Positions 4,995 to 64,000 of a stretch of 64,000 bases of DNA are shown here, piece by piece. Each line of letters starts with the position of its first letter. Position 1 is the stretch's first letter. The DNA comes from Antedon mediterranea. Taxonomy: Eukaryota > Animalia > Echinodermata. The notes beneath the pieces were generated by a model. It searched no databases. It was not told where the DNA came from and was given only the letters and a program-made list of their open reading frames with translations. The DNA lies in the NCBI RefSeq assembly GCF_964355755.1, contig NC_092674.1, positions 27,218,001-27,282,000 of the forward strand. The letters run 5' to 3'. The position numbers and the translations under genes were made by a program.

Positions 4995-5891
4995 TGTAGG
5001 TAGTATGGCAATTAATATTATTGGTATTTTCAGTTGATCACAAATGATGAAATGGTTCGTTAAACCTCGAAACAAATCAGAAGATCCTTTGGAATTTCTA
5101 CACAACTTATTGTTAGGCCCAAACCAATAATAACCAACAAAAAACATCACGTGATTTAATATACCCAATTGAACATTTCTGTTGAATCACTTCTGCCCTT
5201 ATTGTTAGAAAGTTGAAAAACACAAACCGACTTACGTACAGATAATATTTAATGACAATCATTCATTAACTGAATAACTCCTCCAAATCATTATTTATAT
5301 TTATTATAATTATGTTCAACAACGCAATAGACCTATACAAATGTACCGTACACATTGTATTAAACTTTTTAAAACCGCACTCGTCCTCTTAGTAATGTTA
5401 TTGCAATTATTTGTAATGTGATCCGGTCGTCATGGAGAACGATGCAATGATTAGCCTGGGTGCAGTACAAATTTTGGTTTTTCTGATAGAGTATACCATA
5501 GAGAATATCAGAAGAAAAAAACCCATCCTAGGGTCTTGTGGGCAACATTTTTTATAGCACTAAATTTTAAATAACATACCATGGAACTATAATATTATAG
5601 TTCCATGAACATACACAAATACCTATATATTAAGGGATAGGGAAAACCAATTCACGGTTTGTGTCACTTGTTATAATGATTAAAATTAGCAGAGGTTTAC
5701 TTTAATAACTCTTCTCATAGTAGTTAATGAATCGAGTCGACAACGATGACATCATCATGCCAAAATCCAATATGGCGTCCAATTTGGCGGGAAAAAACAA
5801 GTATTGAAAAATGCCTTTTAACGTTACAATGTACGAATGCTACCTTAAAATAATGTATACACATACAGTATCTAAACACGCGATGGTATTG

Positions 5892-5968
5892 TACCCCTTT
5901 CACACCAAAAGCAAAACTCCGGAGACACCCCGGAGTTGACGTCCCGCTGTTTTGGTGTGAAAGGGGTA
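5892..5968. mobile_element. Short MITE (family 3)
   Basis: TACCCCTTTCACACCAAAA...TTTTGGTGTGAAAGGGGTA inverted repeat with an internal AAAACTCCGGAG. Related sequence at 8878-9395 and about 51883-51980. Confidence 0.7.
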
Positions 5969-6699
5969 TTGTATCTACTTACACGGTTATATTGATAACA
6001 CTGTTGTTATTATGTTTATGATGATACTAGTTGATTTAAACATTTTTATCCCGTCAATGTTTACTTTTAACAGTCATAGGCCTAATTGTCGAGAAAGTAA
6101 TTCTTCTGAAAGAGTGCGCTCTTTATCTTACCTCTTGATACGGAACTGGATAGTAATATCAAGTATTTAAAAATTGGTAAAAAGGTAAATATTTCAGCCG
6201 GAATCTAGTTTACAGACAAAAACCGACGACGCCGACTACGAATCAAATACTAAAAACATAAAAAACACAATAACTAGAGCACTTCATTTGCGTAGAACAA
6301 AGTAATATGATTGATTAAATTTTATTAAAATAAATTCGCAAGTAGGCCTACACAATTAACACAAATCATACCGTAATAGGCCTACAATTTGTTTATACAA
6401 AAGAACCAGGAATTATAACATGATCACCACCTGCCATAATCAATAGAATAACAAACTGTAAAGATACACTAATTTAGTTATATATAAACAACTTGAAAAT
6501 TGAAAAAAAGGCGAAAAATACATCTTAAACAGTACAAAATAAAAAAAACATGTTCATGAACTTTTGTAATGATTCGCTTAATTTTGAATTTCTAACCTCG
6601 AAAAGATACACCGTAGTAACTTGACAATTGGAGATATAGTTAAATCATGAGCACCATGAGAAATAAACAAATTTAAACTTAAAATAGTTAATTACAATT

Positions 6700-7885
6700 T
6701 TAATCCAGGCGAATTACGTAACTAACTAAAAACGGAAGCGAAGCTAACCAGTGCCAATTTTGCGGGATGACGGAGTTGTTGTGCCTACGCCTACGGAGCT
6801 TCTCCGTATTCGCCTTTTCTGATCTAGATTGAACTCCTAAAGGCGGCCTACCCGTCTGCGATGTCGTTTTACACGGATACCCGTTACTTCTGTGGTTCCA
6901 CTCGCAATCTTTGTATTCACAGAAGTCACCACTGAAACCAGTAGGACATCTGCATACGTACTTTGAAGGTTATAACTGTCCATTGTTCTGGCAAACTGGA
7001 CATGTACGGTTCTGATGTCGATCATTAGAACATGACAATCCATTACATTTGGGTAGTATCTCGACTGTACGTGTTCTAAATTGCCGTCCTAGAGCGCCTT
7101 TGATGACTTGACAATCTGACCATGGAGTCCATTCTGTCATTTTGCAGTCCTGCACTTTACATTCACAGCACTCACCAGTGTAACCGTCTAGACAAGAACA
7201 AGGACTGTCATCAGAATTGATAACTCCACCATTGAGGCAATAGCGATTGCAGGCCTCTACCTCTTGTCCAGGTGGACAGGGAAAACCGTTGTAACCAGAG
7301 TCTACAATAACGCTTCGTGTTCTTCTTTTTGTTCCGCCTGGTCCACATGTGTGCGAACAGTTTGTCCATTCAGTCCATTGCGTCATCTTACACCAGTCTT
7401 GTACATGATATTCACAGCACTCTCCAGCGTAACCATGTGGACAAGAACAATACGGAGGACTGCCATCTAAATTGATAACTCCACCATTGAGGCAATAGCG
7501 ATTGCAGGTCTCTATCTCTTGTTCAGGTGGACAGGAAACACCGTTGTAATCAGCGTCTACAAGAACGCTACGTGTTTTATTCTTTGTTCCAAACGGTCCA
7601 CATGTGCGAGAACAGTTTGTCCATTCAGTCGATCCATTGCGTCATCTTACACGATTCTTGCGTCTGATATCCATCAGAGTATGCCTGTGCACATCGATAT
7701 TGAATAGGGTTTTTTGACATTTCAATTATGCACAATGTATCAGCATGTCGAGATTCGTCGAATTCTAAAGATTGCACTGTTTCATTGGCATTGCCATTGT
7801 AAAACACGATTATTAGTACGAAAAAGAGGACTCCAGCAAAACATTCGCAATAACCCGCTTCATCAGTTTGCGATTTGCGAGGCAT
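6700..7885 (-). pseudogene. TSP1/EGF two-TM paralog pseudogene
   Basis: High DNA similarity to the 1102-2586 gene. A 4-bp ATCG insertion near 7630 (TGG-ATCG-ACT GAA TGG) shifts the frame, and GAA>TAA at 6970-6972 turns QLEPSKY into QL*PSKY. Confidence 0.8.
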
Positions 7886-26670: not shown

Positions 26671-29504
26671 TCACCTCTTATGAGGTACGGTAGACGAAAC
26701 GACTTTACTCCGTACTGCTTTTACATCGGTTCTTTCCGTCTTTTGCGCCGTGACTATAGCCGATTTTAACCTTGATTTACCGCTTATTTTTTTACGAAGC
26801 TCTTCCATTTCTTCAAGTTTTCTTTTCTCATTTCTTTCTTCCATGTTTTTTAAAAGTTTCTTTTTTAATTTCAACTCTCTTCGTTTCAACTCTCTTACTT
26901 TACGTTCCTCCTGTTTTTTTTTCTTTCGCTCATCATCTAGTTTCTTTTTCTTCTCTTTTTCAATTTGTTTTATCCTCTCATTTTGAAGTTCTGTTACTTT
27001 CCTTTGAACTTCCTCCTGCTGTTTTATTTTCTAGGTAGAAAAAAATGAAATACAAAAATAAATTAATGTTAAACAGTTCCTGGTTGCATGAATTTTTTTC
27101 CAAATACCTTAGATTGCAAGATAGCTGACTTTTCCTAAATAACTGAACCTAACCCTCTAAGATGCTTAAGATAACTTAACAGCAAGAAGGACTAATATAA
27201 GGTGTCCTGCAGGAAGTTGACATCAAAAATAGGTTGCTGGATACAATTAATCATCACGCACTTAGCTACACAACTGTCTTGAAAAGGTGATAATGCAGGG
27301 AAAATTGAGGGGTCAAGGAAACCAGGTCGACCAAAAGCAAGATGGACAGATAGAATTAAGGCCCTTGTTGGACATCCTCTGCCGGTTGTTTACCAACTAG
27401 CTGCTGATCGTAAACAGTGGAATACTATCATGAGAGTCACGAATGACCCTCTAAGTAATCTCTCTCTCTATATAAAAATGTTTTTATCCAATATGATGAA
27501 GAGATGTCAAATAAATGAAAGAAATAGATGAGGTGTACCGCAAAACTTTATATCAACATTTGATTTCACCATGCAAGTCTTCAAAACAATATAATACTGT
27601 ATATTCATAATCTGCTCCCGAAAATGGGATGCCCTCTCTAAGATTTTTAGAGGAAGTTTTTTGGAAAAGAAATGTTGCTTCCTGATTATCCCACCTAAAA
27701 TCATTTGCACCAAAAGTTATAAAATTTGTGGATTAGAGAATGTGTTTAACCTTACCTTTATTCGGCAAAATAATTCTGTTAATAAACGAATTGATTCCAA
27801 TTTTCTCTGAGCTAACAGCAGTTTTCTCTCTTCCATTGCAATCTTCCGCTGCAACTCGGCTTCAGCTTGGAGTCGCTTCTTTTCGTCCTTTCTTATTCTT
27901 CTACGCGCTTCACGTTTTTCAAGCCGGCTCATTTTTCTCATGGCTTTCTGAACTTTCCGTCTCTGTTTCTCCCGTCCCTCCTCTTCTTTCTTTCTCCTTC
28001 AAAAAAAAAGTTTCATATAATTTAAATTTATTAAATTCCAAGCAGAGTTAAATAACATACTATAAAGCTCTGTCTACACTATCAAACTAACTGTGATCAG
28101 CCCAAATACGGTAGTGATATACCCAAATATGGTAGTGATATGATGTCATCATGTCCATATATATTTTTTTGTCACATAAAGTATGACAGCGTAGACAGAG
28201 CTTTAGTTATAACTTTAAAAATGGTTAATTAAGAGTAGAGAAGGCTACTGCAAAAGTCAACCCCAAACTTTATAAATGTCTACTAGTCCATGTAAACAGT
28301 ATTAAATAAGTACTACAAATACCTTTCTTCTTCTACTCTTTGTTCCTCTGCTTCTCTTTCTTTTTTCTTTTGTTCTTCCCTTTCTCTTTCAAGTTGTATG
28401 AGCCTTTCTCTCTCTTTATTTCTTTTCCGTATTGATTTTGCACTCATGTGTTTTGTTTTATCAAAATCAACCTACATAAAATTACAAATATTAATTATGG
28501 ATGGGAGTCTCTTCCTTCCTCACAATTTGAATAACAATCATTATTTTTATCACATCATTATTATCATCATTAAAATGAAATTAAAAATAATATTAATTTA
28601 TTATGTTGTAAAGGCTGGGGAGTTTCTTCTTTTCTCAAGTCAGCAGCAACCTCAGTCCTAGTCAATTCATTTGCAATCAACACATTTCGCTCTTCCCTAC
28701 CCCAACAATCGTTAATTTTAATCACATCATTATTGTTATTACCTTATAATCCACAGTGTATGCCTTGCCATCATCTTTCCTCATCAACTTCATTCCTTTT
28801 AATGAATCCATTGCTTTTACAAAACCTATATATTCTGTAAACTGTATATAAGCACTGAAAGTAATATTACCACCAAAGTTGAAGTTTCCAAATTTTCCTC
28901 CAGTTATTTGATTTTCGTGTCGATACGAGTCTAAAATTGGTATATCAACGTTACGCAGCTCACCGTATTGTTCAAAGATTTTACGAATAATAAACTCACT
29001 TGGATTGTCCGGGTCCTTTTTCGTGGAAAACCATTTACCAGGAAGGTTTTCCAGATGTATCGTGTCGGGTCTTTCACCCGGATTACACTCATTCATGTGT
29101 TGAGCGTCGCGGAAGAAAGAGTCCCAGTCGTGACGTGTTGGGTGAGCAATCTTAGCTTCCGCTGCTCGAACCTTTAGCAGTTCTGTGAAACCGGATAGCT
29201 TGATGTTTTTGCTGTCAAGACGAAGCATTAAAACTTTTAACAGAGCTTTTGTTTCAACTTCAGCCTCGAAGCGAATAAAATCAAAAGAGCTTTGTTTTAC
29301 ACGCAGGATAATGAATTGATCTGGGTGTATCATGTTCTTTAGCTTCTCCATCACTTCCCAGTTACTGATCGACTTGCCTGGTGTCTTAAGTTGTGGCAGG
29401 GTCACTGAAATGCTCATCTTTGCAATGGGTTTTAGGTAGAGCTTCTGAGGCTCAAATAATTCTATGGCTTCGGAGGTATCATTGCATAAGGTCGTGGAAG
29501 CCAT
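26671..29504 (-). CDS. AKAP17A: A-kinase anchor protein 17A (XE7/SFRS17A splicing regulator), about 503 aa
   Basis: Conserved LYLKPIAKMSISVTLPQLKTPGKSISNWEVMEKLK, HDWDSFFRDA, PGERPDTIHL, VDFDKTKH and RKLESIRLL. Exons 28743-29504, 28323-28471, 27756-27996 and 26671-27030 total 1512 nt in frame. Confidence 0.93.
27180..27445 (+). mobile_element. RTE-clade LINE 3' fragment in an AKAP17A intron
   Basis: Degenerate RRTN..VLQEV..RLLDTI...LEKVIMQGKIEG.RKPGRPKARWTDRIK...AADRKQW. Confidence 0.75.
28063..28205. mobile_element. MITE family 2 copy
   Basis: TAAAGCTCTGTCTACAC...GTAGACAGAGCTTTA with TAA/TTA flanks. Confidence 0.8.
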
Positions 29505-30789
29505 GTTGTTATAAATGTTAGCATCACTTTCACAACATAACCTCTCCTTAATTAGTTACACACAAAATCTGAAAATAAAATAAACCAATAATTGTATGTT
29601 AAAGGCTAAATGTGACGGTAGAGCATGTTTTACGATAGCTTTTTTAATCTGAATCTAATCTTCCTACTACACTGTACGCCTGGCTTATTAATATTATAAA
29701 AATGCACAATACTGTAATGAAGTTGAGCATCAGAGGCAAACCTAGCCTAGCAAGATATAGTAGCATAAATAATACTCGGTCCTAAGGGTTTCATTTCATC
29801 TTGATATCGAGACTGACACCACACAGTGACATGGGGAAGGGGAGGGGAGATACACGGATTACACTTTTTTGACTTGGCTATCTACATTACATCTCCTAGT
29901 CCTAGCTAGTCACTCTAAAAGATTAGGATAATGCTAAGTAAAAGAACCCATATACACTTGCTAGCCTACTGCTTAAATTTGGATTTGGGCCTAGCCTAGG
30001 CCTACCAGTTTATTGTTTATGCAATGCCCACTCAGCAGACAGTGGCAATATGCCTGGCCGACCGTGCCCGATTGTCTGATTAAAGTAGGCCTAGCCTTTA
30101 TATTTAATGTCAAATATATGATAATGTACACAAATGTCCATATAATTTACCAGAAATTAGAACTAAAATAAACTGTACATAATGTTGAATTCTAATAATG
30201 TTAATAACATCAATAAAAACAACTTTAAACGACTTGTTTTCACGTTTCCCCTTTGTTGTTAATTTTGTCGTCCCATATTCGATTTCTCGTGTTCTTCTTC
30301 GGTGGTGTGTGCCGCCCTCATTCAAAATAGTTGTCATCAAAGAACTTTGGTACCAATTGAAGTAATGAGCATGGATGGATGATAAAAGTTATAATTACGG
30401 ATTAAAGTTTTAAGCCCGAGCGAGAGAAGAAAGCCACATAATCATAATTGAGTTAAATGTTAATAGCTTTTGTTGTTACATTGTCACCCTATTGTTTTAG
30501 CAAGTGGATCAGAGAAACTTAGAAACATGTACTAGGCCTATACAAAATAATAAATTGGTATTTAAACTTGATATCTAAGTTCAGTTGAATATTATATTTT
30601 GTTTTCGTTTTTGTCTTGTTTGTAAGATGACTAAACATAAATGTCATTGTTTAATTCAATTGTTACACTGTGTGTACATTACCGCGGATAACCCTAACCG
30701 TGACTGCGGCCTTTTGTTTACCGTAGTGTTTATGTTCAGTTCTTTTCAAGTACTACCATTTCACCAGTAACTGTAAATGTATTGAATAT

Positions 30790-31526: not shown

Positions 31527-34500
31527 ATGTCACTGTGTATTGTCTTCATTATTGTTACTGGATTGTCTGTGTGCCATAGTCAGAGTAAGTAAATTACATT
31601 TCTAATTAAAATAACATATATAAGGACTATAAAAGTGTTCAAAAATAGAATAGCCATGATCATCATCGTTATTCAGAGAGGTTTTCCTGCTGTTTTAATT
31701 TACAAGGCGTTATGGTCATTCATACCACTATAGCCTAATTCATAAGAACAAATATTATACTACAGGTACGTAAAGTAAAGCAGCATAATTTGATTTAAAC
31801 ATTTTAAATATTAAAGCCTATTGAAATAAGGATAAATAGTACGTATCGTACCATGGTACCAACTTTTAAAGCGGACTCATTAAAACAATACGAAATACAT
31901 AATCTGTCAGAGTAAATAGGACCCCCATGTATAGAAGTGTTTATGAATTCTTTTAGGCCTATTTCTTCTTTTATTTACAATAAAATCAAATTATCAAACT
32001 TTATGTGATGTGCCCATGGATACGATGACATCATACCACTACCATATTTGGGCACATTACATTTTTTTTTCTAACTAGTTTCATAGTGTAGACAGAACTT
32101 TAGGCTTACTCAACACCAATGAGAAAACAATTCTTATAGGTACTCCTGATTTTAATATCATTTCGTTTGAAAGATGTTGTTAAGAATGAATAGGTCTACA
32201 CTGACTACGGAGGAAAAATAACTAATTAACTTCCTCCTTGCAAAGAGTACGGTACACTACAACAGTGTACGTATAGGCCTACTGTATATATTTCCAGGGA
32301 GATGTAAAATAAATCTCCCCAATATTTCCTGATTAGTTTTTTTTAATGGAACCCACGGTACTACGTAAATAATTTTAATGGAAACTATATATGACACGCC
32401 ACGCTCCACCTGTCTACATTTAGATTTGTTAGTCCCGTTTGGCTCATTCACTTCGACTGTACTCTGTATACTATTTTACTGTGTGTACTTTTTTGTGGAC
32501 TATCAGGTGCTTGAAAGCGGCTGGTTGATTGACAGATAAAAAAGGGCAAAATGTTCCCTGTGAGTGGACAAGGTACTCCAACCTCTTCCCGTCTCTGTAA
32601 ACTGTGATAGCTTAATATTACTCTAAAGGTGATTTTGCCATTTCCCACTATTACAATATAGGCCTACACGGTGTTTATTTGGGTATCTTCGGGGGACTCA
32701 ACAAAGTAAGTCCTTACAGAGGTATCCCCTCTGAATAAGGATTAATTGATTGTTGTGTTATGATTATCATTTCCCCTGTCTTTTAATATGGGGGTGTCCC
32801 AAAGGAACAGGTAAAAACCCCGAGTAAAAATAAAATAGGCCTTGCTCGTTTATAATACCCCCCGGAAAGTATTCCTTTAAATCGAGTAACAAGAAACAAT
32901 TGCAATTTCTTGACTGGAGCTAAATGTACGGTTTAAATTTCGCTACCGTACACCTCGGATGATTGATAAAATTTCGTACAAAAAAACTGACGTTCAAAAG
33001 TTATGTAATGTGGCCATTGGTTTTCCCTCCTGTATTGAAATACCAATATGATTACAACTTTATCACAAAATTACGTTTTTTTCGCTCTGAAAAAGTAAAA
33101 AGTGGTAAAGTTTGTTGAAATAGGACTAGGCCTACACACTACCGTACACCTTTCGTGATTTCCGAACGACGTTTCTAAAGCTCTGTCACGTCTACACTAT
33201 CAAACCGTCTAGTTTGACCAAAAAAGCCCAAATATGGTGGTGATATGCTTAAATATCGTAGTGATATGACATCATCATGTCCATATATGGGCACATCATT
33301 TTTTTGTCACACTATTCATATATTGTAGACAAGGCTTAACAACTCGCCTTAAGTTGTGATATGGTCATTGACACCCCTTCATCTTGTATTATATAACGTT
33401 TTTTTTGCTTTTATAGGGGTACCGTAACATTTACCAGTATCATAGGGAAATTCCTTGACACATCATCACATATGAAATTATTTTAGAGAACGTCCTTTAT
33501 CTAACCCTTAAACTTTCCATTATACAGACATCACAATCATGTAATACACATGGGATGCTGTATTACGCAATTTTCCTGTGATATTGGAGAAATATTGTCA
33601 TATGTCAGCGAGATACCAGCACTGGGTGATTTGCAATGTCGCTACCGTACATATTCAGTTCGTTTTGGTTCATATAACATTTGCATTTACAAAGCTTCGA
33701 GCTGGCACAATGCCACTTGGTGTTCACACAGTGGGCTATATAATTAAGTTGTACGCTATTGTTTATTTGGTCGAAATTGGTCATTTAAGCGTGTATACAC
33801 AACAATGTTAAATTACTTACTAAAATCAATTTCGAAATGTCCCTTATTTAATTTTCAAACAATTCTATGGAGCAAAAATCATTTCTTATTCAAACTATTA
33901 GGGCCTAGGCCTATATACGATTTTGTTATGGAGTGGAATGAGGAAATATATGTATTTGTTTTGTATTGTGGAAAAATATATGATATCTATAGCGTGTAAT
34001 CAATTAAAATTCGGTTGGCTAACATAGCAGTTATATATTTTATGGTGGTTCATTTTCCATTAACCAGATTCTACAGCTGTCATGAAATACTATATAACTT
34101 ACTATCGACAGTCAGCTATAAATTGCATGCAGATAGAACCTACTGACGACAGAGATAACCATATTAAATAGTATTTAACGTTCTAGTTGACTGTCTATAG
34201 CCAGTTAGATGGTATCTAATGACACCTACAAAATCCACCATCGGATGTCCACATTTCCCTCATCATCCTAGTCGCATAAATGTTTTTAATTTAATATACA
34301 TTTTTGGTTTTGTCAGATGTTGAGGGATTAACGGATTCAGAATTAGATATAGTGGTGGAATTTGTAAAGTCACACGAAACGTTTCAGCAAATGTCTTCGA
34401 CAAATAGTGTTGGAACAAGGATTGTGGGATATTCATTTCAAATGGATAGCGATGGTAGATTAATATTTAATGGACTATTTACTGGAATACTTGACTTTGA

Positions 34501-37500
34501 AAGGGTGAGAGATGGACTTGACAGCATTACAGAACAACAAGCGACTCAATTGCTAAAGGTATAATTTTAAAATCGAAACAATTAAAATCTATTTTTTACT
34601 ATAATAGACTGTTAAACAAAAGCTAGCTAGCAAATAAATTAAGGGATGACTAAAAAGTTAATTAACTAAAGGCCTAGACAATGTTTGGCTGGAACGATAA
34701 AATAATAGTAGTTTTCGATTTGTGCGCATGCGGGGAAGTTGTGAGGCTCTTTCTCACTACACTCCTTATTAGCACAATTTAATCTATCAACGTCCAAGAT
34801 GACGACATTAACAAATATCTAAAACTATGCGTATATAAGGCCATATATTACAACATCACATTCAAATATAGTTAGAACTAGAATTCACCAGGTAGGGGAT
34901 ACAAGTTGGCGTAGGTAGTGACCCGATCGGTCCCAGCGTTTAGAAACCTTAGCCAACAAAAAAGATGTGGCTGCTTCAGGGAAGGCCCACTTCTTGAGAA
35001 AATCGCTTCTGAAGAACCCAGTCAGCCCATGATGAATGGGTTCTTTTGAAGCGATTAAAAATTGTTTCATTGTCCAAACAAATATCTTGCAGCATTTTAC
35101 CTTCAGTTTTTCAACTACATTGCATTATTTAATTCCCAAAATGTTTTACAGGAAGATTTAAGGAATATAGTGCAGGCGCTTGATGCAGAATTTGGATCAT
35201 TCGCAAGCTACTCGTTTGACGTAAAGAAAGGTCTGGTTGATGCCGAGTTCTCGAATATTTTATCCGATGAATTAAGGTCATACCTGATAGCAGCGCCGAG
35301 ATGGCAAAGAATTTGCTTTGCTATAATAACATCTACAGAAGGTAAATGATTATACTTTTGTTATAATGTAATGCGTGAATTAATGCATAAATACAGGATA
35401 TATTATTGTGTTCATTGTGGTACGCGCAGGAGTGTACGCTATATTAATTTAAGATTTGTTTGTTTGTTTCATTTATTTATTTTCCACACATTGAACAAAA
35501 AAGAACATATTTAAACTTCTAGAAAGAAAAGAAGACAATGTGTGAAAGGAGATCAAAATAAGTAAAACTTACTATAAAGTATGAATGAACTTGAATAATT
35601 GTCGTTATTTTAGTACTTGCCGTTAGAATCTTATTGACTAACAACATCGCTATTAATCAGAATAGTTCCTAACTAGTACAGATAGTAACTTAATTAAACC
35701 TACTGTGTTGAGCCAAGGTCAATAAAATTACATTTTTTGCCCATGGTTGAGCTATATTATATTTAAATTCTTTATCATTTTCAATAATTAAAAAAAAAAC
35801 AGCGCCGTCTTCCGTTCCTTGAAAACATGGTGTTAAGATACAGGTGTCTCTGCCTTAAGTTGACATATCACGTGGTCACATGATGTTCACCCATTAGGTA
35901 GGCCTATATTTGTTCATTTCAGGTGATGATACTCGAAGGTTTGACGACTGTAGGAGTATCTGTCCAGTACCTACTCCTTTTATTCGCGATAATGCAGTGT
36001 ACGACGCTTGTACGGCGGAACGTAAGTTTTTAGAATCTTTCTGAAGATATCAAGAAAGCGAGAAAAAACTGTTTTCTTCGACTTTTATAAAATATAGAGA
36101 TTCTAAGCTTCCTCCTTACCCCCATCTTTCATCTGGATTGATTATTGAACAATAACAAATCAGAAAATCAGCGCCACCCATTGATCAATCAAATATTTTC
36201 GACGACACTTTCGTGAAACACTGAGTAATACTCATCAGATTCTGGAAAATAATTACCAAATTTACCAAAACTTCGAATTCTCCGTCCGTGTTCTGTCTCT
36301 ATTTGGAGATATAAGAAACATTTTATCTGGAAATATTTTGGGTCTTGTGTATAAAAATTGCATTGTTAACGTTGATCAATTGCATTTTTCTAAAATAAAC
36401 GGCGTAAACAGTTTATAGCTCGGCGATGTGAACGTGGTATAAAAGAGGTATAAGTCTGAATTATTATCTTTATTAATTTTTATAGAAGTAATGTTTCCAT
36501 ATGGTGTTGATTTCAACGACGAAATTGGACCGGTGAATGATGATGGATCTTCGGGCAGGATCGATCTATTGACGTTCTTTCCGTTTTACGATGAGCTGCA
36601 CGAATCACTTTTTGTACGTAAACGGTTTTCAGAATTGAAATGAATACACCCTTATTATTCATCGTATTAATTAAAGATGTATTGTCAAGTCAAGTATATT
36701 TCAAGTAAACATTATAAAAAACATTTACATTGAAATGAATTTGAAAGGTTTCGGCTAACAACATAGAACTTAAACTACAAATAATGAAAAATTAAGATTA
36801 ATTAGGCCTAAATCAGATTTGTAATTGGTTATTGTGTAGTTTTAATAAAGTTAATCACCTCCGTAGAAAAAAACGGAAAAAAATAATGCTTCCACTTATA
36901 AAATGACAAAATAAATGGTTAAATTCAACCAATTGGCTGGCAACCAATTTGACTATTTTTGCTTTCAATTACAGTTTCTTCAGGTAAATATTTTTTTTTG
37001 GATCCAATTTTTGATCAAAATGGAATATTCAACAAAAAATGTTTTAATAATTATTTTTGTCAGAGTAACAATACATCTTTAGCAAGATAAATGTGTTTTA
37101 TAATTATGTAGCCTATCGTAAAATGTATTCAACATGAAACAATGAACTAACAATAATTATAGGGCATACACACATTTAAACAAATCTTTGTACATTAATT
37201 TACACTGGACTTTTTTTTAATATATATAATAGGTGAACACAAATGGGATAATTTCATTTGATGAGGAAGAGGCGACATATACATCGCAACCCTTTCCCCT
37301 AACATCGGACCAAGGGAGTGGAGGATCTTCTGTTGATGAACATACATCACTCATTGCACCGTTTTGGGCTGATGTTGATACAACTGAAGGTGGTACCATT
37401 TACTACCGACAAATGACAAGGCGTGACGATGAATCCCTAGCTGCCGCCGTCGATGAGATCGTAAACGAACATGTTATGTATTCTGGAGACGCATTTCAGT

Positions 37501-40500
37501 TGATTTGGTACTTGGTAGCTACTTGGGACCAAGTCGCGTATTACGGCAGGCCAACTTACGAATTTACGCGTAACATTGTGAGTATATGAAGCCGTAAGAT
37601 TGGTTCTCACTAGAGACGCAACGCAAGGACGTAACGTAACGTAAGTGATTTGACCAATCACAAGCGATGGATTATTCGAACAGTGGCTTGTCATTAGTCA
37701 ACTCGATTGCGTTGCGCGTACGCCCTTGCGTTGCGTCGCTAGTGGGAACCACGCTTTACACGTAATTTAAAGTAAAAGATTAATGTGTATAAAGTGAATA
37801 ACTGTTCAAACTACGAACATGCCTATTCAAAGTTTGATATTAATCTGTAGTATTTTTCATCTTTATCATCATTCAACCACATTAACATGTCCCTCTCCTC
37901 AAAAAGCGCCTCATCTATAAAGCTTTGTACTATATATATTTTTTATTATTTAACACAGACTAACACCTTTCAAGCAATTCTAGTGACGGATGGTATACAA
38001 TCATACACCATATTCAACTACGGTGATATACAGTGGACAACTGGAATTGCTAGCGATGGTGACAATTATGGTCTAGGTGGCACACCGGCCCAGGTATATA
38101 TCAATGATTGGAATCAAAATGTCTTACCTACCGTGATTTTAGTATTCTGTGTTCAAATTAATTTTTTTGATTATAAGTTAATATTCTGGTAATTTGCCAT
38201 TAACCAATAGGCCTATTGGTGTTCTGTTTTTCCAGTACGATTCTGGAATAAATAATTGCTTCGGCCGGTATTAAATATGGTGTAAGAAAATATAACATAA
38301 AATAACCATTTTTCTAGCATTGATAGGCTATTAATAGGTTTATACATTATAAAAACACGATACACAGCTAACAATTGAAGGTTAATTATTAATTCGATCA
38401 ATAATTACTGTATATCACTTTAGGATTTGGTATTATCATTTATTGTCTTATTTCAAAATTGAGAACACTGATATCTAAATTGAGAAAACACTGATTTTAA
38501 AATTGAAATAATACTGCTTTTTAAATTGAAATAACATTGTATCCTGTTCCTTTGTCACCTAGGTAGGGTCCGGGACCGCGACAGAAGGAGAACGGATGGG
38601 GACCCTCCAAAGAAATTGCATTTTATTTGTCGGGCATTTGTATGATTTGTTTTATTTTTTTGAATGCGCCTTGAGCACTCTTGAGTGGCATGTGCGCTAT
38701 AAAAATCCTGTTATTATTATTATTTTATTATTATTTTTAAATAGAAATAACACTGATTTCTAAATTGAGAGAACATTGATTTCTAAATTGAGAGAACACT
38801 GATTTCTAAATTAAAAGAACACTGATTTTTTAATTGAAAGAACACTGATTTTTAAATTAGGAGAAAACTGAATAACACAATAGAAAGTACGGTACCGTAC
38901 GGGCCTTATATGAATGCGTCGGTACTTTTCATATATATATATATCTTTCATTTGAATGCGGCACTTTATTCGACTGTAGCACACATAAAAAAGTTAAATT
39001 GCTGTCGTGATACGACTGCTGTAGCATAATGTTGTGAGCCGTTTACTCAGTTATTGAAGGAGATGCAACATTAATTACAATGAATGTATAATTGTTGTTA
39101 ATATTCAGGTTGGATGTAATGCTGGTGATGAAGTCAGGCATCATGACGTGGCTGAATCCCAAACAGATGCCATAGTGAATATTAATGAAACAAGCAATGT
39201 TGGCCAGCCAGGCAGATACATTTTCAAAATCAGTGAGGAAAATGTAGTATCGTATGACTGCAACGCTTTTGGTAAATATATAACTCAAAATATATACATA
39301 ATATTTTCGCCTTTTCCATTTCTCGACTCGATTTGAATGGAAGCTTCATTTTGCAGATGTTAAGTTCAAGTCAATGACTACTACACGTTTATTTGAATGT
39401 AAAAACCAATTGCTGTGTGCGTCTTAAGAGAATGAGATATCTTGCGTGTGGTAGTAGTAGTTGCGGGTGATAACTAGTTTCATCGTGTGTGTCTCTAGCA
39501 AATTCTTTTTTGTGTATAGTAGTCATTTGTTGCGTGATGATAGTAGTAGTTACGTGCAATAGTCAGTTCTTGCGTGTGGTTGTAGTAGTAGTTACGTTTG
39601 ATAGTTGTTGCGTGCAATAGTCAGTTATTGCGTGTGGTTGTAGTAGTAGCTACGTGTGATAGTTGTTGCGTGCAATAGTCAGTTCTTGCCTGTGGTAGTA
39701 GTAGTAGTTACGTGTGATAGTTGTTGCGTGCAATAGTCAGTTCTTGCGTGTGGTCGTAGTAGTAGTTACGTGTGATAGTTGTTGCGTGCAATAGTCAGTT
39801 CTTGCGTGTGGTAGTAGTAGTAGTTACGTGTGATAGTTGTTGCGTGCAATAGTCAGTTCTTGCGTGTGGTAGTAGTAGTAGTTACGTGTGATAGTTGTTG
39901 CGTGCAATAGTCAGTTCTTGCGTGTGGTTGTAGGAGTGGTTACGTGTGATAGTTGTTGCGTGCAATAGTCAGTTCTTGCGTGTGGTAGTTGTAATGTGGT
40001 AGTTAAGTGTGATAGTTGTGCATCCAATATTCAAGTTGTATATGTATAGCTAGTAGTATGTGATAGATGTTTTGTACGGTACCATAATTATATTATTTTG
40101 TGTACAGATAGTGGCTCAATCCTTACATATCCTTCCTTCGGATCCATGCTGGGTGGTGCAAGGATATTCATTCAAGGAACATGTTTCGATAATCAAGATA
40201 TTGTAATGTGCAAGTTCATTGATGCTGAAACCGGACCAGAGGTACCGTGTCAATTTGAAAACGAACGCGCAGTGTCTTGTGTGGTACCATGGTTACTGCG
40301 CATTGGTAGAGTACCAGTTTTTCTTTCAAAGGATGGTGGTATGACTTATGGCTTTCGAGGAATCTATACATCAGGTAAGCAACTCGAGAATAATAAAATA
40401 ATTATCAAATAATTATCAAACACGTATAAACCATACTACCATATATTACAACCTCATGGCAGCTGTGTTTTTACCTAACTTTTCACATCTGACTGGAGAG

Positions 40501-43500
40501 AGGCAAATGTAAGGTGTTGAGCATTGGCTCTTAGAACAAGTGTAGACATATGCCAATAATGTTTTTCCCAAATCAAGTTTAAAGATGTATGTAAATAACC
40601 GACAAATAAATAATTTAATAAATGACAAATTGTCAAAGAGGTTGTTTTAAACCAGTCTTGGATGCCGTTCATTATGACAAGTGTACATTGCTTTGGTTTG
40701 TATTATAATCCAAATGCTTTTGTTTTGTAGTGAGTGTTGATGAAGTAACCGAAGATGTCGCGCCAAAAGCTCGCCTTGAGTACGATGACGACTTGGAAAG
40801 ATACACGGTTATGTGGAGGGCAGACTCCTTGCAAGGGCATTTCTTCGATATTGACATTATTTTATATGATGAGTATGATCCAACAAACCTAGAAATGGTC
40901 AATATTTTAAATGATAGGCAATTTGAAACAGCAGAAGAAAATTATGAATATCTTGTGCCCAGAAATTTTGAAGTGGAAACATCAAAACTTGGAGTCATTC
41001 GTGTTATGCAAGGTGACGAGGAACCTGGTGGTAACAACGAGTAAGTATTTAATGCGTTTCATTTATCCTTTTCAAGTTTGAAGTCTGAAGTACCACCAAG
41101 TTGCTAATCATAGTCTTTTAGACCAGACTTCAGAATCATAGACCATAAATTGATAGAAGTCATTCAATGTCAGTAAAACATAATTAATATCCACCACCTA
41201 ATTGGAATAAACAATTTAAGCAACAAAAACGTCTTTGTGCGAAAAGGGAATGGAGTAACTTTGTTATTATTCACAGTTATTATCAGTTAAGATCCATTCT
41301 ATCTTACTTAACACTAGTGTATACAAACATTGGCGTATTGTTTTTTTTCTGAAAAAGAAAATCTTGTCAGAATTAAAAATGTATTACAGTAAATTTAACT
41401 TTAAAATGAAATAAATAAATGTTTATTTGATTTGACTTGTTATACAAACAGATACCTCTATCATCTTCCACTTTTGCAAGATTTTACAAAATGTTATCAT
41501 TAATACTATTTATCTGTTCACAGTTTTGCATTATACATTTGGAGTGACCCATTTGACATGAGCATATTTTATAAATATAAGTTCGATTTACGTAAATGGT
41601 GTTCGTCATGGCAAAATTTGTATGGAGCATTTACTTCAGATGGTGAATTTACTTCAGATGGTGAATTGAGGTGTCCATGTAACCTACAGACTGCTTTGGT
41701 CGATCGGGGACGCTTTGAGTCAAGTCCACGCTGTTCAAATACAGTCGAGGATTCGTGTTCAGATGACGGTGATATTGTGCACTGTGTTCGTAGCAGCAGT
41801 CCCAGGTAAACTATACCATACCGTTTGTGGAAGGAGTCAAGTCAGCTCTGGTCTCCCTTTTTAAGAAAAGAGCTTTCAGAAAATATTTCACTTCACATTC
41901 TCAGCCCCTTTTCCAATTCTCAATCCTTTCCGTCATTCTCACCTTCTTGACCTTCCCATTCCCAACCTCTTTCCAATTCTCCACATGCACTTTCTAAGCA
42001 TCATGAGTTTGATTGTATAGATTATGTAGATTTGTTTGTATATTTAAAACTTTAACATAAAAGAAATAATCTGATTATTTACTACCTGTAGTTCCAACGG
42101 AGAAGGTTTAGAGTGTTGTTACGACATCAACGGAAACCTTGCCAATATAGCTGATAATTTGTATGCAGGTTACATTCATCGGTATCACTACCACGGTACA
42201 GAACCATTCGACCAAACGGGTACTTCTCCCTACTTCTCGCATTACACAAGTGATGTCTTGCCATACATTAGGTGCTGCTCTACTAGGTCTGATTGTGATC
42301 GGTATTTCATACCATATCGACCATCGCAGGATTGTAATGGCTACCAGCCTCCTAGACCAGGTACATTTGTAGATATCTATGTATGTCACCGCAAGCACAC
42401 CTAAAAGCAACAAAAACATTATAATCATATCTCTTTTTGACATACAGTACTTTAATCATGAAATATGATACACACCATTGATTTGACAGTACTCTGCCTA
42501 TTTTTATTTGTTGTGGTGGGTTGAGGGAGAGGGAACTTAATTGTTTTCACAAAGGTTCATTAAAAAGACATACAGTATTTTATAAACAGAATATTTTGTT
42601 TGACAGGAAGATTGAATGGTGATCCCCACATATTAACTCTGGATGGACTTGCGTACACATTTAATGGACATGGAGAGTACGTTCTGATAGACGCACTCGG
42701 TGGATTGTTTGAAATGCAAGGACGTACCGAACCAATTAAAAATGGTTGGTAGGCCTACTGTAAATAGCACTATAGTGTAAGGAATTGAAAATTAGGTGAA
42801 CTAATGAAAAGCATACATGGTTGTTACAGATATAATGCCAATTAAGGTACAAATGCGATGTCTGGGCTTGGTTTACATGGATGTCGGCAAATTCTCTTTT
42901 TTATTCATGTATAAAACAGAAGAAACACAGTGATAACCTATACTATATAAGACAGGCTAATATTTATAACAGTCATACATTATACCTGAAATTATAAATG
43001 TATATTGTCTAGAATTTGTATTCTGAACAAATAAATAATTATTATTTATTAGGTACCACACCAATTAAGGCTACACGGTTTACTGCAATCGCAGCGAAAT
43101 TTAACAATGATACGATGGTACACGTAGCATTGAATCAAGTACGTGGACTGGTTGCCTATACGACTGAAGACTATGTATGGTCACGTATAGACTTTGACGA
43201 TAATCCGATCTGGTCTGGCACAGGTAATAATACTTCATTTTTCATTTGATATGTGGCTCGTGTCAGTGACAGGTTGAATGTTAAAATCATTAAAAACCAA
43301 TTGAAAATGTTCATTTATCCGATCTGGCACAGGTAATAATACTTCTGTAAATCAAGTATTTAAATTTATTACCCCACTTTCTGATTTTCTGACAGCGGTT
43401 TTTTTTTTTAGCAGAACAAGCAAATTTTTAAAGTTGTGCTTGCCACAGGACTTTTTTTTTAAATTGTGGCATTTTGCAAAAATAGAAAAACTAAACCTAC

Positions 43501-46500
43501 CACTAGCCTTTTAAAAACCTTTTTTGCAGGACTTACCATCTTCTACACTAAGGCAACCAATGAGACCAGTGTATCTATAACCGTGGCGTACGATTTTGGA
43601 TTATCATTCGTTGTTGAAGCTAACAATGACCTGATGTCAATAATAGTCTACGGTCCTGAGATGTTGCGTGGCAACACCAGCGGATTGCTTGGAAACTGGA
43701 ATGATGATGTCACAGATGACCTTCGAACTCCAGATGGGGACATCATTCCCTCAAACTCAAGTCTTCGAGATATCCACTATGATTTTGGAGAGAAGTGTAA
43801 TATAATTTATATACAGTTTTATTTCACTGTAGCTAAGTAAAAAGTAAATGCCAAGACCTCATCCAATCACCATCCCTTTAACATACATCTTTAGCATCCA
43901 TAGTAAGGGACTATAATATCTCTATGTGTACAGTACACATTGTTGGCAAGAAAAACACCTGCAACAGGTGTTTTAGTTCAAATCAAATTTTGTTCTAAAT
44001 CATGACTACTGTTTGATTCTATTTAGGGCGAGTTGACCCTGAGGATTCAATTCTATATTATATACCTGGTACTGATTATAGTACATACTATAATCCCGAT
44101 TTTGTGCCATGGTTTGAGCCACCAGACAATTTTGATCAGGAAGAAGTGAAGAAGGTTTGTGGAGACAACATTGAGTGTATCTTTGACTACCAAGTTACAG
44201 GGAATGTAGAAATTGCCAAAGTCACAAAAGATATTGTAGAATTTGTTGAGGAAATTAAGGAAGATGTTAAACCTGGTACGTTTTTTTTCCATTATCACAT
44301 GCCACTAGAATAACCATTACCATCATCATGGATTACAAATACCAAATCCCCCTACTATTATACCTATTTACCATGATTAACACTACCAAATCCACTTCTA
44401 CAATCACCATGATGACAACTACCATTAATACCACTACACAACAATGAACATCCATTACCACCATTAACACTACCATTTCCACCACTAGAATAACCATGAC
44501 AACTACTACCATCACCATAATTATGAAAACCATAACCTTGAATACCCATTATCAAATTCACAACTACCATCCTCATGATGACCACGGATCTCCATGATGA
44601 CCACTACCATCACCATGATGGCCACTCCATCACCATGATGACCACACCATCACCATGATGATCACTACCATCACCATGTTGACGACTACCATCACCATGA
44701 TGACCACTACCATCACCATGATGACCACTACCATCACCATGATGACCACTACCATCACCATGATGATCACTACCATCACCATGATGACCACTACCATCAC
44801 CATGATGACCACTACCATCACCATGATGACCACTACCATCACCATGTTGACGACTACCATCACCATGATGACCACTACCATCACCATGTTGACGATTACC
44901 CTCACCATGATGACCACTACCATCACCATTGTGACCACTACCATCACCATGATTGAATACCAATTACCATGACCTCACCCCCATTTTCAATATATATCTA
45001 CAGTACAACGACCATTCCACTTGTAAAATCCTAATAATTTTCTTTTACAGTTGTAGTGTGTGGTTTCATATCTACTCCGCAAAACGGCTCCAAGACTGGT
45101 ACAACGTACACAGAGGGCAGCATTTTAATATTTATTTGCGAAACTGGTTTCAAATTGACTGGTGAATCTAGGATCATTTGTACACCAGAAGGAGTTTGGT
45201 CAGATTTTACACCCACCTGTGTTGGTAATTATTAAGTTTATATATTATTACCTTGTACTGTATTTCATTTAAAATTGATCCTTTTCTCTTTTCTTATTTA
45301 ATCTCAACTCACTCCATCCTACCATACCAGTTCTTCTTTTGTATTCATGTTCCTCCAATCAGATTTATTCGTTTATTCTATTTTTTGCATCTCCTCTCAA
45401 TCCTTTACTTTCCACAATTCATCCAGTATCTATCTCTCTTGTCTGAACACTTCTTCTATCAATTCTCATTTCATAAACACTTTTCTATATTCTTTAATAA
45501 ATAAATTGTTCTATTTTATTTGCAGACCAATGTGAATACGCAGAAGCCCCTCAAAATGGAGCTAAACAATTCAAAGGGCAAACTATATACTTCACATGCA
45601 ATGATGGTTATACGTTAAATGGAGAGTCTTCCATAATGTGTATGGGAGGGACGGTGTCTGATAGTATGCCCACTTGTGAAGAAGGTAAATTTTTTCCATT
45701 AAATCAACCTATACTAGAATCATATTTACATTTTAGACGATTGGAGGTATATCTCCTTCCTTAATGCTGCATCATTTCTAAGTTTGTATAATTAGTTAAA
45801 AAACAAATACTAAAATTTTCCTTTGCTCACCTTTACTTTTAGATTTTCCCATCTTGTATATTATAATTGGTTCTGCTGCTGCTGGCCTCTTTTTAATATT
45901 TATTGGCATTTTATGCTGCTGGTGCTTCTGCTGCAGAAGGTATGTGAATAGGGGTGTCCCAAAGCATTGGTTTTACTGTAGTAAAAACATTACTTATTGA
46001 AATGAATCAAAATCTAAAAGAGGGCGAAAGAAAGTCACTCACGCATGTAATTTCAACTAAAAAATGTAATGATAATTACCAAAAATTAAAGCCAAGACAT
46101 TTTGACTGTCCACATGGCACTACAAAAAAGTAACCTCAATGCAATGACCTCTTACCTTATATCAGAGAAAGATTTTTTATTTTATTTACTGTCTTGGTAT
46201 CTATACACAAAGTATCCACTAAGTACAGAGCTCCTATGAAATTGAACGAGTTTAAAAAAAAAAGTAGATACTTTGAATTCTAAATGTTTCTAGTTCTTTA
46301 CTTCATATCAACTCTTTATTTGTAGATCTAGTAGTAGATCACAGGCTGGAAAACACAAAGAATCATCTTTTCATGTCATGTAAGTGTACCAGAAAAGTCA
46401 ATAATATTGAAAAGCCCCCCCCCCCCCCCACTCCACAAGAATCCCACCCTAAAAAATACTGTTATGTTTTCCCAACCCACCCTAACTTTTTGACACCGGG

Positions 46501-49051
46501 ACACCAACCTCCTAGACATTTCTAGATAAATCAAAAACCAAATGAGTCTTACCTTAATCAGGGAAGAGTGAAATTACATTCCCTGCCTTAACATAACATA
46601 GAAATTTCCAGCACAAATTTTTACTTCTAAGTAAATAGCTTAGTTGAATTCTTTTACATCTTTCATGTTTTTATTTGAAGTTCTTATTTCATAATAATAA
46701 AATCTGTATTTTATAGAGAACATGGTGCCACAGGCTTAGTTGAAAAGTGAGTATTAAGTCTTTATATTTCTCTTCCGTAAAAACAATAGACTGCAAAAAT
46801 TATTAGGAGTTAAGCCTTCTATTTTAGAGGCTACATTCAATGTTCGTACAGTGGATCCTTTTCAAGGATCAGGTATACTTAAACATTTTGCCTGCCATCA
46901 CAATGGTCAAGTGAGAATACCTGATTTAAACTCGCCAGAATGGCTAGTTACAATGCAAAGGGACAAGTCAAGGCAGATACATGGGGGCAGGAGGTGTTAG
47001 CCAGGCACTTTTAGGACCTGGGTCCCACCTTTAAAAATCCTGGATCTGCCACTGCCCTACGAGTATTTATATATGGCATATGAACACCTAATGACTGGGA
47101 ATGACTAACACATACATTCTTCATTGAATGTTGTGTGAGTTAAGTAAGTGGGGGAAGCCGATACAAATAATTGTACTTAATTAAAATTGAACTCAGAAAT
47201 CTGAAAAAAGGTTACTGCTGATCACCATACCACAATAATTAATGGTATATAAAGTTGGTTCGTACTTTCGATACTGATTTTAACCACCTGATGTAACCCT
47301 GTTTACTAATTAAATGGAGTTCGATAATTAGTTATTGAAGATTAAAACGAATTTAGGTTCAACGATTTGCCCCAAATAGGGGTGTTTTCCGATCGTGGTA
47401 TACACTGTCCAATGCATGTCTATCTTGAAAAATACCCGCATACAATAATACGAGGATGCTTCGCATTTTCCTATCTCCTCCTACGATAATTGTTTTTAAT
47501 GGATGAAAACCGGTTGAACAGCTCGAGTACAGCATCATAATGTTGAAGACAGACCTATTTTCTTAAAAACATACTATTTTGATAGATTTAATATACATTT
47601 ATACAAATGTATTGATTTCCGATGAATGGAACATTCCAATAATAACTCTTTGCTTTAACACAAGTACCACCAGCTGTTGTAAATTTATTGGCCCTTGGGG
47701 AATTAACCTAAAACCTATATATAGATAAGTATTGCAATACTTGGACATTACTGTAAATACGTATTAACATTTGTGGTCGCCATTGAATTTACTGTGAGTG
47801 TGGGTACTGAGAACACAATCATGTACAAATAAACGTATTACTGTGAGTGTAGGCCCTACTGTTATATAGAACGTACAATATACAAATAAACTGTAGTACT
47901 GACAGTTGCTTCTCAACGTTTGTATTAATTAATAATTACAAAGAATATAAACGTTGTAGTGGTACGTGTATCGTTACATGTACTATGCTATTTCAATCGA
48001 CTATGACAGTGACAGTTTTAACAAAGTATTAAGTCGCAAATGTGTTACTGTATCAAGTGGTATATTATTTATAGGCCTGTGAGTAGGCCCTACTGTTATA
48101 TAAAACGTACAATATACACATAAACTGTAGTACTGACAGTTGCTTCTCAACGTTTGTATTAATTAATAATTACAAAGAATATAAACGTTGTAGTGGTACG
48201 TGTATCGTTACATGTACAGGCTATTTCAATGGACTATGACAGTGACAGTTTTAACAAAGTATTAAATCGCAAATGTGTTACTGTATCAAGTGGTATATTA
48301 TTTATAGGCCTGTGAGTAGGCCCTACTGTTATATAAAACGTACAATATACAAATAAACTGTAGTACTGACAGTTGCTTCTCAACGTTTGTATTAATTAAT
48401 AATTACAAAGAATATAAACGTTGTAGTGGTACGTGTATCGTTACATGTACATGCTATTTCAATGGACTATAACAGTGACAGTTTTAACAAAGTATTAAAT
48501 CGCAAATGTGTTACTGTATCAAGTGGTATATTATTTATAGGCCTATCAAAGTGAAAAACATATTTCGTTACTGAGTAGATAAATAATATATTAAAACATT
48601 GTTCTTCTTTGTACCCATATCCTCTTCCCCATCCCTCAAAACTAATGTTACACACAAAACACAAATTGGGTTTGTTTAAATGAGTCCAAATAACAAATTT
48701 GGACTCATTTTGTGACAAGTTTCTCTTTCGGAAGTAATTCCCAGTGTGCTAATTTCAGTTTAATACATAAATCATCGTGTCTATTTATTTGTTTCTGTAA
48801 ACAATAATAACTATTATCGTCCTGCAGTACGTACATTAAAAAAAGCATTTTTTTACGCTGAAATTACTGTGTATTCGAGAACCATCTGTGGGCACGACCT
48901 AGATGGTACGCGAGCGAAGCGAGATTATAATCTAGTAATTATAATTTATACAATTTATACTATTAATTGTTATCAATATTTTATTTCTTGTTTCTTTAGT
49001 CCAACGTACGATGGAATTTCAAATCCAGCTTACGAAAGAAGATTATTTTAA
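31527..49051 (+). CDS. Mesh/SUSD2-like type I membrane protein, copy 1 (signal - lysozyme-like - NIDO - IPT - AMOP - VWD - 2 sushi - TM - NPxY tail), about 1292 aa
   Basis: 22 GT-AG exons total 3879 nt in frame: 31527-31584, 34317-34558, 35152-35341, 35923-36021, 36486-36613, 37233-37577, 37959-38093, 39109-39271, 40108-40374, 40731-41040, 41524-41805, 42092-42360, 42607-42744, 43053-43223, 43530-43796, 44027-44275, 45051-45224, 45526-45684, 45843-45939, 46326-46379, 46717-46746, 49000-49051. Motifs [71 protein letters not shown]. Confidence 0.92.
36671..37082. mobile_element. Kolobok-like MITE (TTAA-flanked, AG termini)
   Basis: TTAAAGATGTATTGT...ACAATACATCTTTA. A related internal sequence lies at about 51381-51636. 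Confidence 0.6.
37595..37758. mobile_element. MITE family 1 copy
   Basis: Same TIRs and internal TTGACCAATCACAAGCGATGG as 274-458. Absent from the equivalent intron of copy 2. Confidence 0.8.
38445..38872. repeat. Degenerate short tandem repeat (AACACTGATTTCTAAATTGA) interrupted by a LINE-like 3' tail
   Basis: The unit recurs at 38460-38540 and 38740-38870. The insert ends GCGCCTTGAGCAC...GCGCTATAAAAAT..(TTA)n, like an L2/CR1 tail. Confidence 0.55.
39535..40020. repeat. 58-bp minisatellite, about 8 copies
   Basis: GCGTGCAATAGTCAGTT at 39610, 39668, 39726, 39784, 39842, 39900 and 39958. Confidence 0.95.
44575..44955. repeat. 21-bp minisatellite (CCATCACCATGATGACCACTA)n, intronic
   Basis: Directly visible, preceded by degenerate CAC/CAT-rich sequence from about 44290. 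Confidence 0.95.
47845..48545. repeat. About 233-bp tandem repeat x3 in the last intron
   Basis: GTAGGCCCTACTGTTATATA at about 47849, 48083 and 48316. Units are near-identical. Confidence 0.92.

Positions 49052-50339: not shown

Positions 50340-64000
<13,661 letters not shown>

Follow-up and report, generated by a model that had tools for sequence, protein, structure and literature searches.

The window analysed here, a stretch of 64,000 nucleotides (nt) from the feather star Antedon mediterranea (contig NC_092674.1, positions 27,218,001 to 27,282,000, forward strand), contains two tandem genes of the Mesh/SUSD2 type on its + strand, as defined by splicing by coordinates, and both encode a domain resembling phage T4 lysozyme (T4L) between the signal peptide and the NIDO domain. 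Copy 1 comprises 22 exons (31527-49051, +), and its spliced product has 1292 amino acids (aa) without internal stops; copy 2 starts at 50340 (+) and continues past the window end. Scanning of the window revealed matches to the lysozyme-like domain at these two gene copies only. The exon-by-exon Pfam search of the copy 1 protein gave the order NIDO, TIG, AMOP, VWD, C8-3_MUC4 and two Sushi domains. A hydrophobic stretch near residues 1217-1247, the predicted transmembrane (TM) helix, precedes a group of clustered cysteines and a tail that carries two NPxY motifs. The protein has a signal peptide, the full NIDO-TIG-AMOP-VWD-Sushi-TM order and a single membrane pass, as in the Mesh/SUSD2/MUC4 family. 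The features are as follows.

31527..31584 (+): copy 1 exon 1; start codon, hydrophobic signal-peptide-like leader, phase-1 intron at its end; last 30 nt in the spliced contig described below
34317..34558 (+): copy 1 exon 2; lysozyme-like N-terminal lobe, insertion of ~18 aa, start of the long helix
34376-34378 (+): Glu11 equivalent in exon 2; Glu kept
34403-34405 (+): Asp20 equivalent in exon 2; now Asn
34421-34423 (+): Thr26 equivalent in exon 2; now Ile
34433-34435 (+): Gly30 equivalent in exon 2; now Ser
35152..35341 (+): copy 1 exon 3; C-terminal helical lobe, weak on sequence alone
35302-35304 (+): Trp126 equivalent in exon 3
35923..36021 (+): copy 1 exon 4; last helix, Cys/Pro linker, phase-1 intron at its end
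35934-35936 (+): Arg145 equivalent in exon 4
36486..39271 (+): copy 1 exons 5-8, NIDO region (PF06119, E 2e-21); exon 4-5 and 5-6 joints
40108..45684 (+): copy 1 exons 9-18; TIG, linker, AMOP, VWD with GDPH, C8-3_MUC4, two Sushi
45843..49051 (+): copy 1 exons 19-22; TM helix, clustered cysteines, short tail bearing two NPxY motifs, stop codon
50340..50397 (+): copy 2 exon 1; signal-peptide-like leader
51088-51332, 52096-52285, 57246-57344 (+): copy 2 predicted exons 2-4; second lysozyme-like domain
57706..64000 (+): copy 2 exons 5 onward; NIDO, TIG, AMOP, start of VWD, running beyond the window edge

Exons 2-4 of copy 1 are all preceded by AG and followed by GT, are in frame, and together amount to 531 nt between two phase-1 introns; a phase 1-1 cassette of this length can therefore be added or skipped in frame. 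A preliminary description of this DNA had proposed that these exons splice in frame between the signal peptide and NIDO, and both the exact coordinates and the stop-free product agreed with it, the peptide that it quoted being present letter for letter in the 1292-aa sequence. The same domain that it placed within 51088-57344 of copy 2 corresponds to the three predicted exons listed above, in which Glu and Asp are retained and the Thr26 equivalent is Val.

The RefSeq model P0001 of A. mediterranea, compared by eye, is identical to copy 2 exons 5-10 except for its final five residues, and omits the lysozyme-like exons. Intron 3 of copy 2 holds a ~3.3-kb array of a ~45-bp AT-rich satellite (53870-57185), which may explain why P0001 begins only at exon 5. 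The two copies are 97.4% alike across 1 kb including introns (42057-43091 versus 62966-64000), and their synonymous divergence (dS) is 0.047 in exon 3, 0.33 in exon 2 and 0.86 in exon 4; the contrast in dS and the 97.4% stretch suggest patchy gene conversion between them.

Transcription of the fusion

The joints of the cassette were visible in sequencing run X1, where one 607-nt contig (depth 51) connected the end of exon 1 (30 nt, a loose end), exons 2, 3 and 4, and 44 nt of exon 5, at positions coinciding with the predicted introns. Further X1 contigs linked exon 5 to NIDO exon 6, and the run data also contained 3' joints of copy 1 at 45937-46324 and 46379-49000, with exon 21 itself unseen there. 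Depth in X1 was ~45-78 in exon bins versus 0-15 in intron bins; the DNA run X2 read through the same introns without gaps. X1 is a single run that was treated as RNA by guess, a guess borne out by its joints, and contigs were matched at a cut-off of 85%, with copy 2 exon 2 being 82% alike, so that the result refers to copy 1-like sequence. The fusion transcript is expressed in at least one copy (copy 1), and the joining of exon 4 to exon 5 and NIDO, for which the preliminary description had called for transcript data, was observed in contigs spanning exons 1-5 and 5-6. Contamination was considered and ruled out by the GT-AG introns, the phase-compatible fusion, the spliced contig and the occurrence in a second genus.

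Distribution of the fusion among relatives

The second genus is Anneissia, whose protein P0004 ('protein mesh-like', A. japonica) carries the same domain in the same place, identical to copy 1 at 86/158 positions (54%); the corresponding identities are 144/238 in NIDO and 37/99 in the linker. Two further RefSeq models of A. japonica, P0009 and P0003, whose contig equals that of P0004 in length, look like the split halves of a second lysozyme-Mesh fusion gene. P0009 departs from Antedon directly after the residue that ends Antedon exon 2, and this divergence point suggests that the exon 2/3 intron is common to both genera. The NCBI names of the Anneissia relatives are 'protein mesh-like' and 'sushi domain-containing protein 2-like'. 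The fusion is conserved in these two feather-star genera.

A phmmer search with exon 2 against 1.84 billion representatives gave 26 matches at E<=0.001, the only full-length ones being P0004 and P0009 from Anneissia; this set is clustered at 50%, and other crinoids may be hidden in its clusters. The remaining 24 matches were short and multi-stretch, the two inspected were repeat proteins, and all were rejected. In a small sample of full-length relatives outside the crinoids (P0005, P0007 from Lingula and P0008 from Holothuria), none of the three possessed the domain: unlike in the crinoid proteins, the leader directly adjoins NIDO, and the lysozyme hidden Markov model (HMM) described below gave <= -1.8 bits or nothing.

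Detection of lysozyme homology

Standard searches returned no lysozyme. Exons 2 and 3 of either copy, searched singly, had no match to any Pfam family at E<=10, nor did the whole Anneissia domain, and the curated cut-off of PF00959 was not reached; the hmmscan comparison with PF00959 by which the preliminary description had wished its assignment to be checked thus came back empty at E<=10. The PHROGs search contained no lysozyme match (best E 0.016, function unknown), and sequence searches of PDB sequences and annotated phages likewise yielded none. A word-based search with exon 2 recovered 0/55 candidates, but it was insensitive and missed P0004 too, and a search with the P0004 region recovered P0004 alone among 803 candidates.

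Custom profiles gave a different picture. A hairpin motif, sought in two scans of DNA, produced 230 motif open reading frames, of which 229 were lysozyme-like and 176 distinct and long enough; this set was picked on the motif (positions 26-30), not on its score with the crinoid domain. The HMM of these 176 phage lysozymes scored 33.3, 39.8 and 26.9 bits on the three crinoid domains, compared with best values of 4.7-7.2 bits in 2000 shuffles per domain, none of which (0/2000) reached the domain scores, and 35.5, 28.3 and 22.5 bits on the full-length crinoid proteins. Profile-profile comparison by hhalign aligned the crinoid domain with the same profile at 98.1% (E 1.3e-13, score 81) over 129 colinear columns extending into exon 3; the controls reached 12 for the reversed alignment and at most 23 in 100 column shuffles. 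Most of the signal is supplied by exon 2 (hhalign score 64.9). A second profile, from 65 T4-like lysozymes collected with T4-related seeds and not selected on the motif, gave 15.0, 16.3 and 7.8 bits, above 1000 shuffles for each of the three domains; it aligned at the location given in the preliminary description and revealed an insertion of 18 residues.

The ESM Atlas listed PF00959 phage-lysozyme clusters first for exon 2 (0.93; 181 features shared), at a recognition of 2287, slightly below the mark of 2300 set by the tool. Such clusters also came first for the Anneissia domain, at 0.85, a value to be read as no more than a lead. Four bridging relatives exceed the PF00959 cut-off, and T4 lysozyme is matched at 1e-28 by a profile built mainly from these four. 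Judged from these sequence comparisons, the likeness to lysozyme exceeds chance, and homology is detectable by custom profile and profile-profile comparison; with custom HMMs and hhalign well above shuffles, the assignment of a T4-like GH24 domain to exons 2-4 is upheld. The 129-column match, which includes the insertion, places the domain with T4-like GH24 proteins (PF00959; T4L, P22 gp19), and in particular closest to the phage and bacterial group with an insertion of ~18 aa before the long helix. Equivalents of Glu11, Gly28, Thr59, Phe104, Trp126 and Arg145 are shared with these enzymes. The crinoid domain differs from them in its ~20% identity, absence of a PF00959 match, incomplete catalytic triad, acidic charge, division into three exons and position within an animal membrane protein.

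Structure models

An unguided AlphaFold model built from crinoid rows only had a predicted local distance difference test (pLDDT) value of 42 and matched no fold in a meaningful way (best E 0.7 in Foldseek; best Z 4.8 in VIA). For a guided model, 30 relatives were added, namely the 37 highest of 108 non-redundant rows by crinoid-profile score less 7 that were removed by hand; the L127-type subfamily was kept out. This guide set was picked after the C-lobe register had been seen to vary with the sequence set. Alignment A3 and two automatic sets gave other C-lobe registers and were unused for folding. The guided model reached pLDDT 90 and a predicted template modelling score of 0.85 (five models, pLDDT 88.7-90.1), with 83-96 over residues 91-160. 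Its best PDB match was P22 lysozyme (2anv; Z 13.4, root mean square deviation (rmsd) 2.8 Å, 136 residues), and it also matched PHAb11, DLP12, LysF1 and SpmX (Z 12.6-13.1), SpmX (6h9d) being among the top five at Z 12.6 and rmsd 3.1 Å over 132 residues. Against viral structures, all named rows in the Foldseek top ten were lysozymes, none at E<=0.001. Being partly circular, the guided model indicates compatibility with the T4L fold and is not independent proof of it. The L127-type phage subfamily was examined as a better fit to the C-lobe and rejected, its local profile match being limited to the first 70 columns.

It is very improbable that the likeness arose by chance, or that it is confined to exon 2 with exons 3-4 forming an unrelated helical region. 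The empty Pfam, PHROGs, PDB-sequence and annotated-phage searches, the pLDDT of 42 in the unguided model and a score for exons 3 and 4 that barely exceeded shuffles are what such an explanation would predict. It fits poorly with an hhalign match of 98% whose 129 colinear columns continue into exon 3, with the first rank of PF00959 clusters in the ESM Atlas for both species, and with the confidence of the guided model across residues 91-160.

Active-site cleft, charge and constraint

The cleft residues of the three crinoid domains were tabulated against 30 relatives, themselves motif-selected at positions 26-30. Equivalents of Glu11, Gly28 and Arg145 were retained in 3/3 crinoid domains and Asp20 in 2/3, while Gly12, Tyr18, Thr26, Gly30 and Gly107 were retained in none; the replacements were Gly12 to Thr/Ser, Tyr18 to Thr/Ser/Leu, Thr26 to Ile/Val, Gly30 to Arg/Ser and Gly107 to Leu. 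The partial Anneissia protein P0009 agrees with this table over exon 2. Across four copies, Glu was present in 4/4 and Asp20 in 3/4 (Asn in copy 1), and Thr was changed to Ile or Val in 4/4; the Arg145 partner of Glu11 was found in 4/4 in the register used, other registers also being seen. Among the 65 lysozymes not selected on the motif, Thr26, Tyr18 and Gly30 are present in 64/65 (one gap), and Gly107, Trp138 and Arg145 in 65/65.

All solved T4L-like endolysins are described as having Glu-x8-Asp/Cys-x5-Thr, with an Arg bridging the Glu (PMC8228626), and the attacking water is reported to be held by Asp20 and Thr26 (PMC8334348; PMC5606550). This GH24 triad is incomplete in the crinoid domains, with Thr replaced in 4/4 and Asp changed to Asn in copy 1, and because the triad test fails the domain should not be classed as a canonical GH24 enzyme. 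The preliminary description had suggested a tethered peptidoglycan hydrolase or sensor; the working hydrolase is disfavoured by the changes at Thr26, Tyr18, Gly12, Gly30 and Gly107 in all copies checked and at Asp20 in copy 1.

Selective constraint was compared between the copies: the ratio of nonsynonymous to synonymous divergence (dN/dS) is 0.44 in the lysozyme-like domain versus 0.36 downstream, and the domain is under purifying selection. Among crinoid copies, 72/158 domain columns are invariant.

The cleft substitutions bear on an efficient membrane-tethered or shed muramidase, which would lyse bacteria on the feeding or gut surface by a Glu-only mechanism. A GDPH motif, which in mucins is an autocleavage site, lies at residue 834 and could allow shedding. 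Glu is kept in 4/4 copies, Glu-only lysozymes such as AP3gp15 and the goose type are known (PMC5674055), and the bivalve phage-type lysozyme HcLyso1 is reported to be lytic (PMC5303276). The triad common to the solved T4L-like endolysins (PMC8228626) nevertheless speaks against this enzyme, as do the Thr to Ile/Val change in 4/4, the missing Asp of copy 1 and the lost cleft glycines, and we regard it as improbable.

Origin of the domain

The nearest group to the crinoid domain comprises phages, bacteria, archaea and eukaryote-like secreted cysteine-rich proteins. The eukaryote-like T4-like lysozymes (L411:19-753, L479, L480, L482 and L485) are secreted and cysteine-rich with an intact triad, and two have apparent introns; L411 comes from a bacterial metagenome-assembled genome, into which it may have been binned as a contaminant. 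A supported clade unites four of these lysozymes.

The tree comprised 63 rows, with bivalve sequences and T4 lysozyme not included. The crinoid stem branch was 3.2 (quick tree) or 4.0 (careful tree) substitutions per site. In the careful tree the crinoid domain fell among phage domains of marine type (local support 58/67, bootstrap unsettled), inside an enclosing set of 19 rows, nearly all viral, with support 95/95; the quick tree left it unplaced. A clade of the crinoid domain with the four eukaryote-like rows was not rejected (approximately unbiased (AU) test, p 0.43). A non-animal origin is likely, because none of the three relatives carries the domain and no other animal matched. Of the proposed domestication of a phage or bacterial lysozyme, the intron-containing domestication stands; a direct phage or bacterial donor does not follow, given the long stem, the inconsistent placement and the AU p of 0.43.

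Comparable events have been published for bivalves, in which phage GH24 genes are described as co-opted with intron gain and fused to PGRP, MALRD2 and HSPG (PMC5303276). These bivalve proteins (BCPLs) resemble the crinoid case in that a phage-type GH24 domain encoded by an animal has acquired introns, been duplicated and become joined to extracellular proteins. They differ in phylum and fusion partner, and BCPLs are reported to be 28-32% identical to their best search matches; judged from published values, the crinoid domain appears far more diverged than the BCPLs, one of which is reported to be lytic. Echinoderm lysozymes are mainly of the i-type according to a 2026 paper (PMC12855814), and a paper on echinoderm genomes (PMC7351957) does not use the words 'lysozyme', 'mesh' or 'SUSD2' in its main text. 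The literature search found no description of a lysozyme-Mesh fusion, although subscription papers or supplements could hold one. The claim of an undescribed architecture is sustained to that extent, with a novelty narrowed by the published bivalve fusions (PMC5303276): the fusion is apparently an undescribed case of a domesticated phage-type lysozyme joined to an animal extracellular protein.

Other features of the window

Positions 1105-7641 (-) contain long single-exon open reading frames that encode TSP1 repeats of the spondin type and probably represent a small tandem family, and an AKAP17A-like gene (~26700-29555, -; PF25015, E 3e-47) is divergent from copy 1. Intronic tandem repeats of copy 1 lie at 39520-39990 (~50-bp GT-rich units) and 44590-44960 (~21-bp CAT-rich units).

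Interpretation

We propose that the T4-lysozyme-like domain on this crinoid Mesh/SUSD2-type protein acts as a tethered binder of peptidoglycan or a similar N-acetylglucosamine glycan that cuts weakly or not at all, and judging from the residues kept and lost we give this reading a probability of about one half. A full lytic enzyme is unlikely on the same residues. The best reading by analogy is that the domain would work more like SpmX of Caulobacterales than like T4 lysozyme. SpmX is reported to keep Glu11, to carry Val or Ile at position 26 in roughly two of every three genes and to have lost Tyr18, and its activity, first reported as absent and later shown, is described as attenuated and Glu-dependent (10.1101/418723). 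Like the crinoid domain, it is a domesticated phage-type GH24 domain in a larger host protein with the same pattern at 11, 18 and 26; unlike it, SpmX resides in a bacterium, has its own wall as target and is ~40% identical to P22 lysozyme. Asp20 is Leu or Arg in SpmX but mostly kept in crinoids, and the resemblance is drawn as an analogy, not as evidence of kinship.

Several observations weigh against binding or against the lysozyme assignment beneath it. Larger residues stand in place of Gly30 and Gly107, and the Trp138 position is a gap in the crinoid domains; we take these three positions to line the substrate site. The domain is acidic, with an isoelectric point (pI) of 4.4 and a net charge of -12, whereas 195 relatives have a median pI of 8.9 and only 4.6% lie below 4.8; the whole ectodomain is likewise acidic (pI 4.2). 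The kept Glu and Arg are weak evidence for catalysis because 72/158 columns are invariant anyway. Exons 3 and 4 alone score 16.5, with shuffles reaching 16.1; the confident model had 30 hand-chosen lysozymes as its guides; and the C-lobe register, with the assignments of Gly107, Trp138 and Arg145, shifted with the sequence set.

Some of these observations would equally be expected if the lysozyme fold were only a structural or protein-binding cap, no longer in contact with bacterial walls and involved, for example, in adhesion or, like insect Mesh, in assembling septate junctions, an account that we consider possible without favouring it. The change of five near-invariant cleft positions in all copies, the gap at Trp138, the acidic surface and the very long stem branch agree with a cap, and Drosophila Mesh is described as a smooth-septate-junction protein (PMC9281564); mosquito Mesh, of the same domain order, has been linked to the gut barrier (10.1101/2021.05.07.443077). 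Glu11, Gly28 and Arg145 in all copies and Asp20 in 3/4 argue the other way, yet lie within background conservation, and SpmX is a reported case of a domain called inactive at first and then shown to be active (10.1101/418723).

For the tethered binder, the following course may be envisaged. Exon shuffling in an ancestor of the crinoids would have brought the 1-1 cassette into the phase-1 intron that follows the signal exon, and the lysozyme-like domain would sit outermost on a surface protein of epithelia. Glu11 and its partner Arg145 may keep the cleft shaped, while the loss of Thr26, Tyr18, Gly12, Gly30 and Gly107 would have removed efficient hydrolysis. In the copy 1 cytoplasmic part (45843-49051), cysteines clustered next to the membrane and a pair of NPxY motifs are features typical of palmitoylation and of endocytosis or phosphotyrosine-binding (PTB) domain binding, respectively, and bound material might be held or internalised via the NPxY-bearing tail. 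A more specific and rather doubtful proposal is a lineage-specific crinoid receptor for pattern recognition or capture of peptidoglycan, in which a phage-type wall-cutting enzyme would have become the ligand-binding tip of a Mesh/SUSD2 scaffold with the NPxY tail serving uptake or signalling, unrelated to PGRP, LysM and NLR sensors.

The fusion extends the range of domesticated phage-type lysozymes to another animal phylum, in a domain invisible to standard annotation: nothing is found in Pfam, and the exons are dropped from one RefSeq model. The 160-residue domain can be expressed alone, which makes the question of its function cheap to test. Should it be structural only, it would still be of modest interest, as a clear example of a foreign fold moved by exon shuffling. 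If peptidoglycan is bound, the protein would be a new kind of animal receptor for the bacterial wall in filter feeders, would parallel SpmX in the taming of a lytic enzyme, and would tie the Mesh/SUSD2 scaffold directly to microbes.

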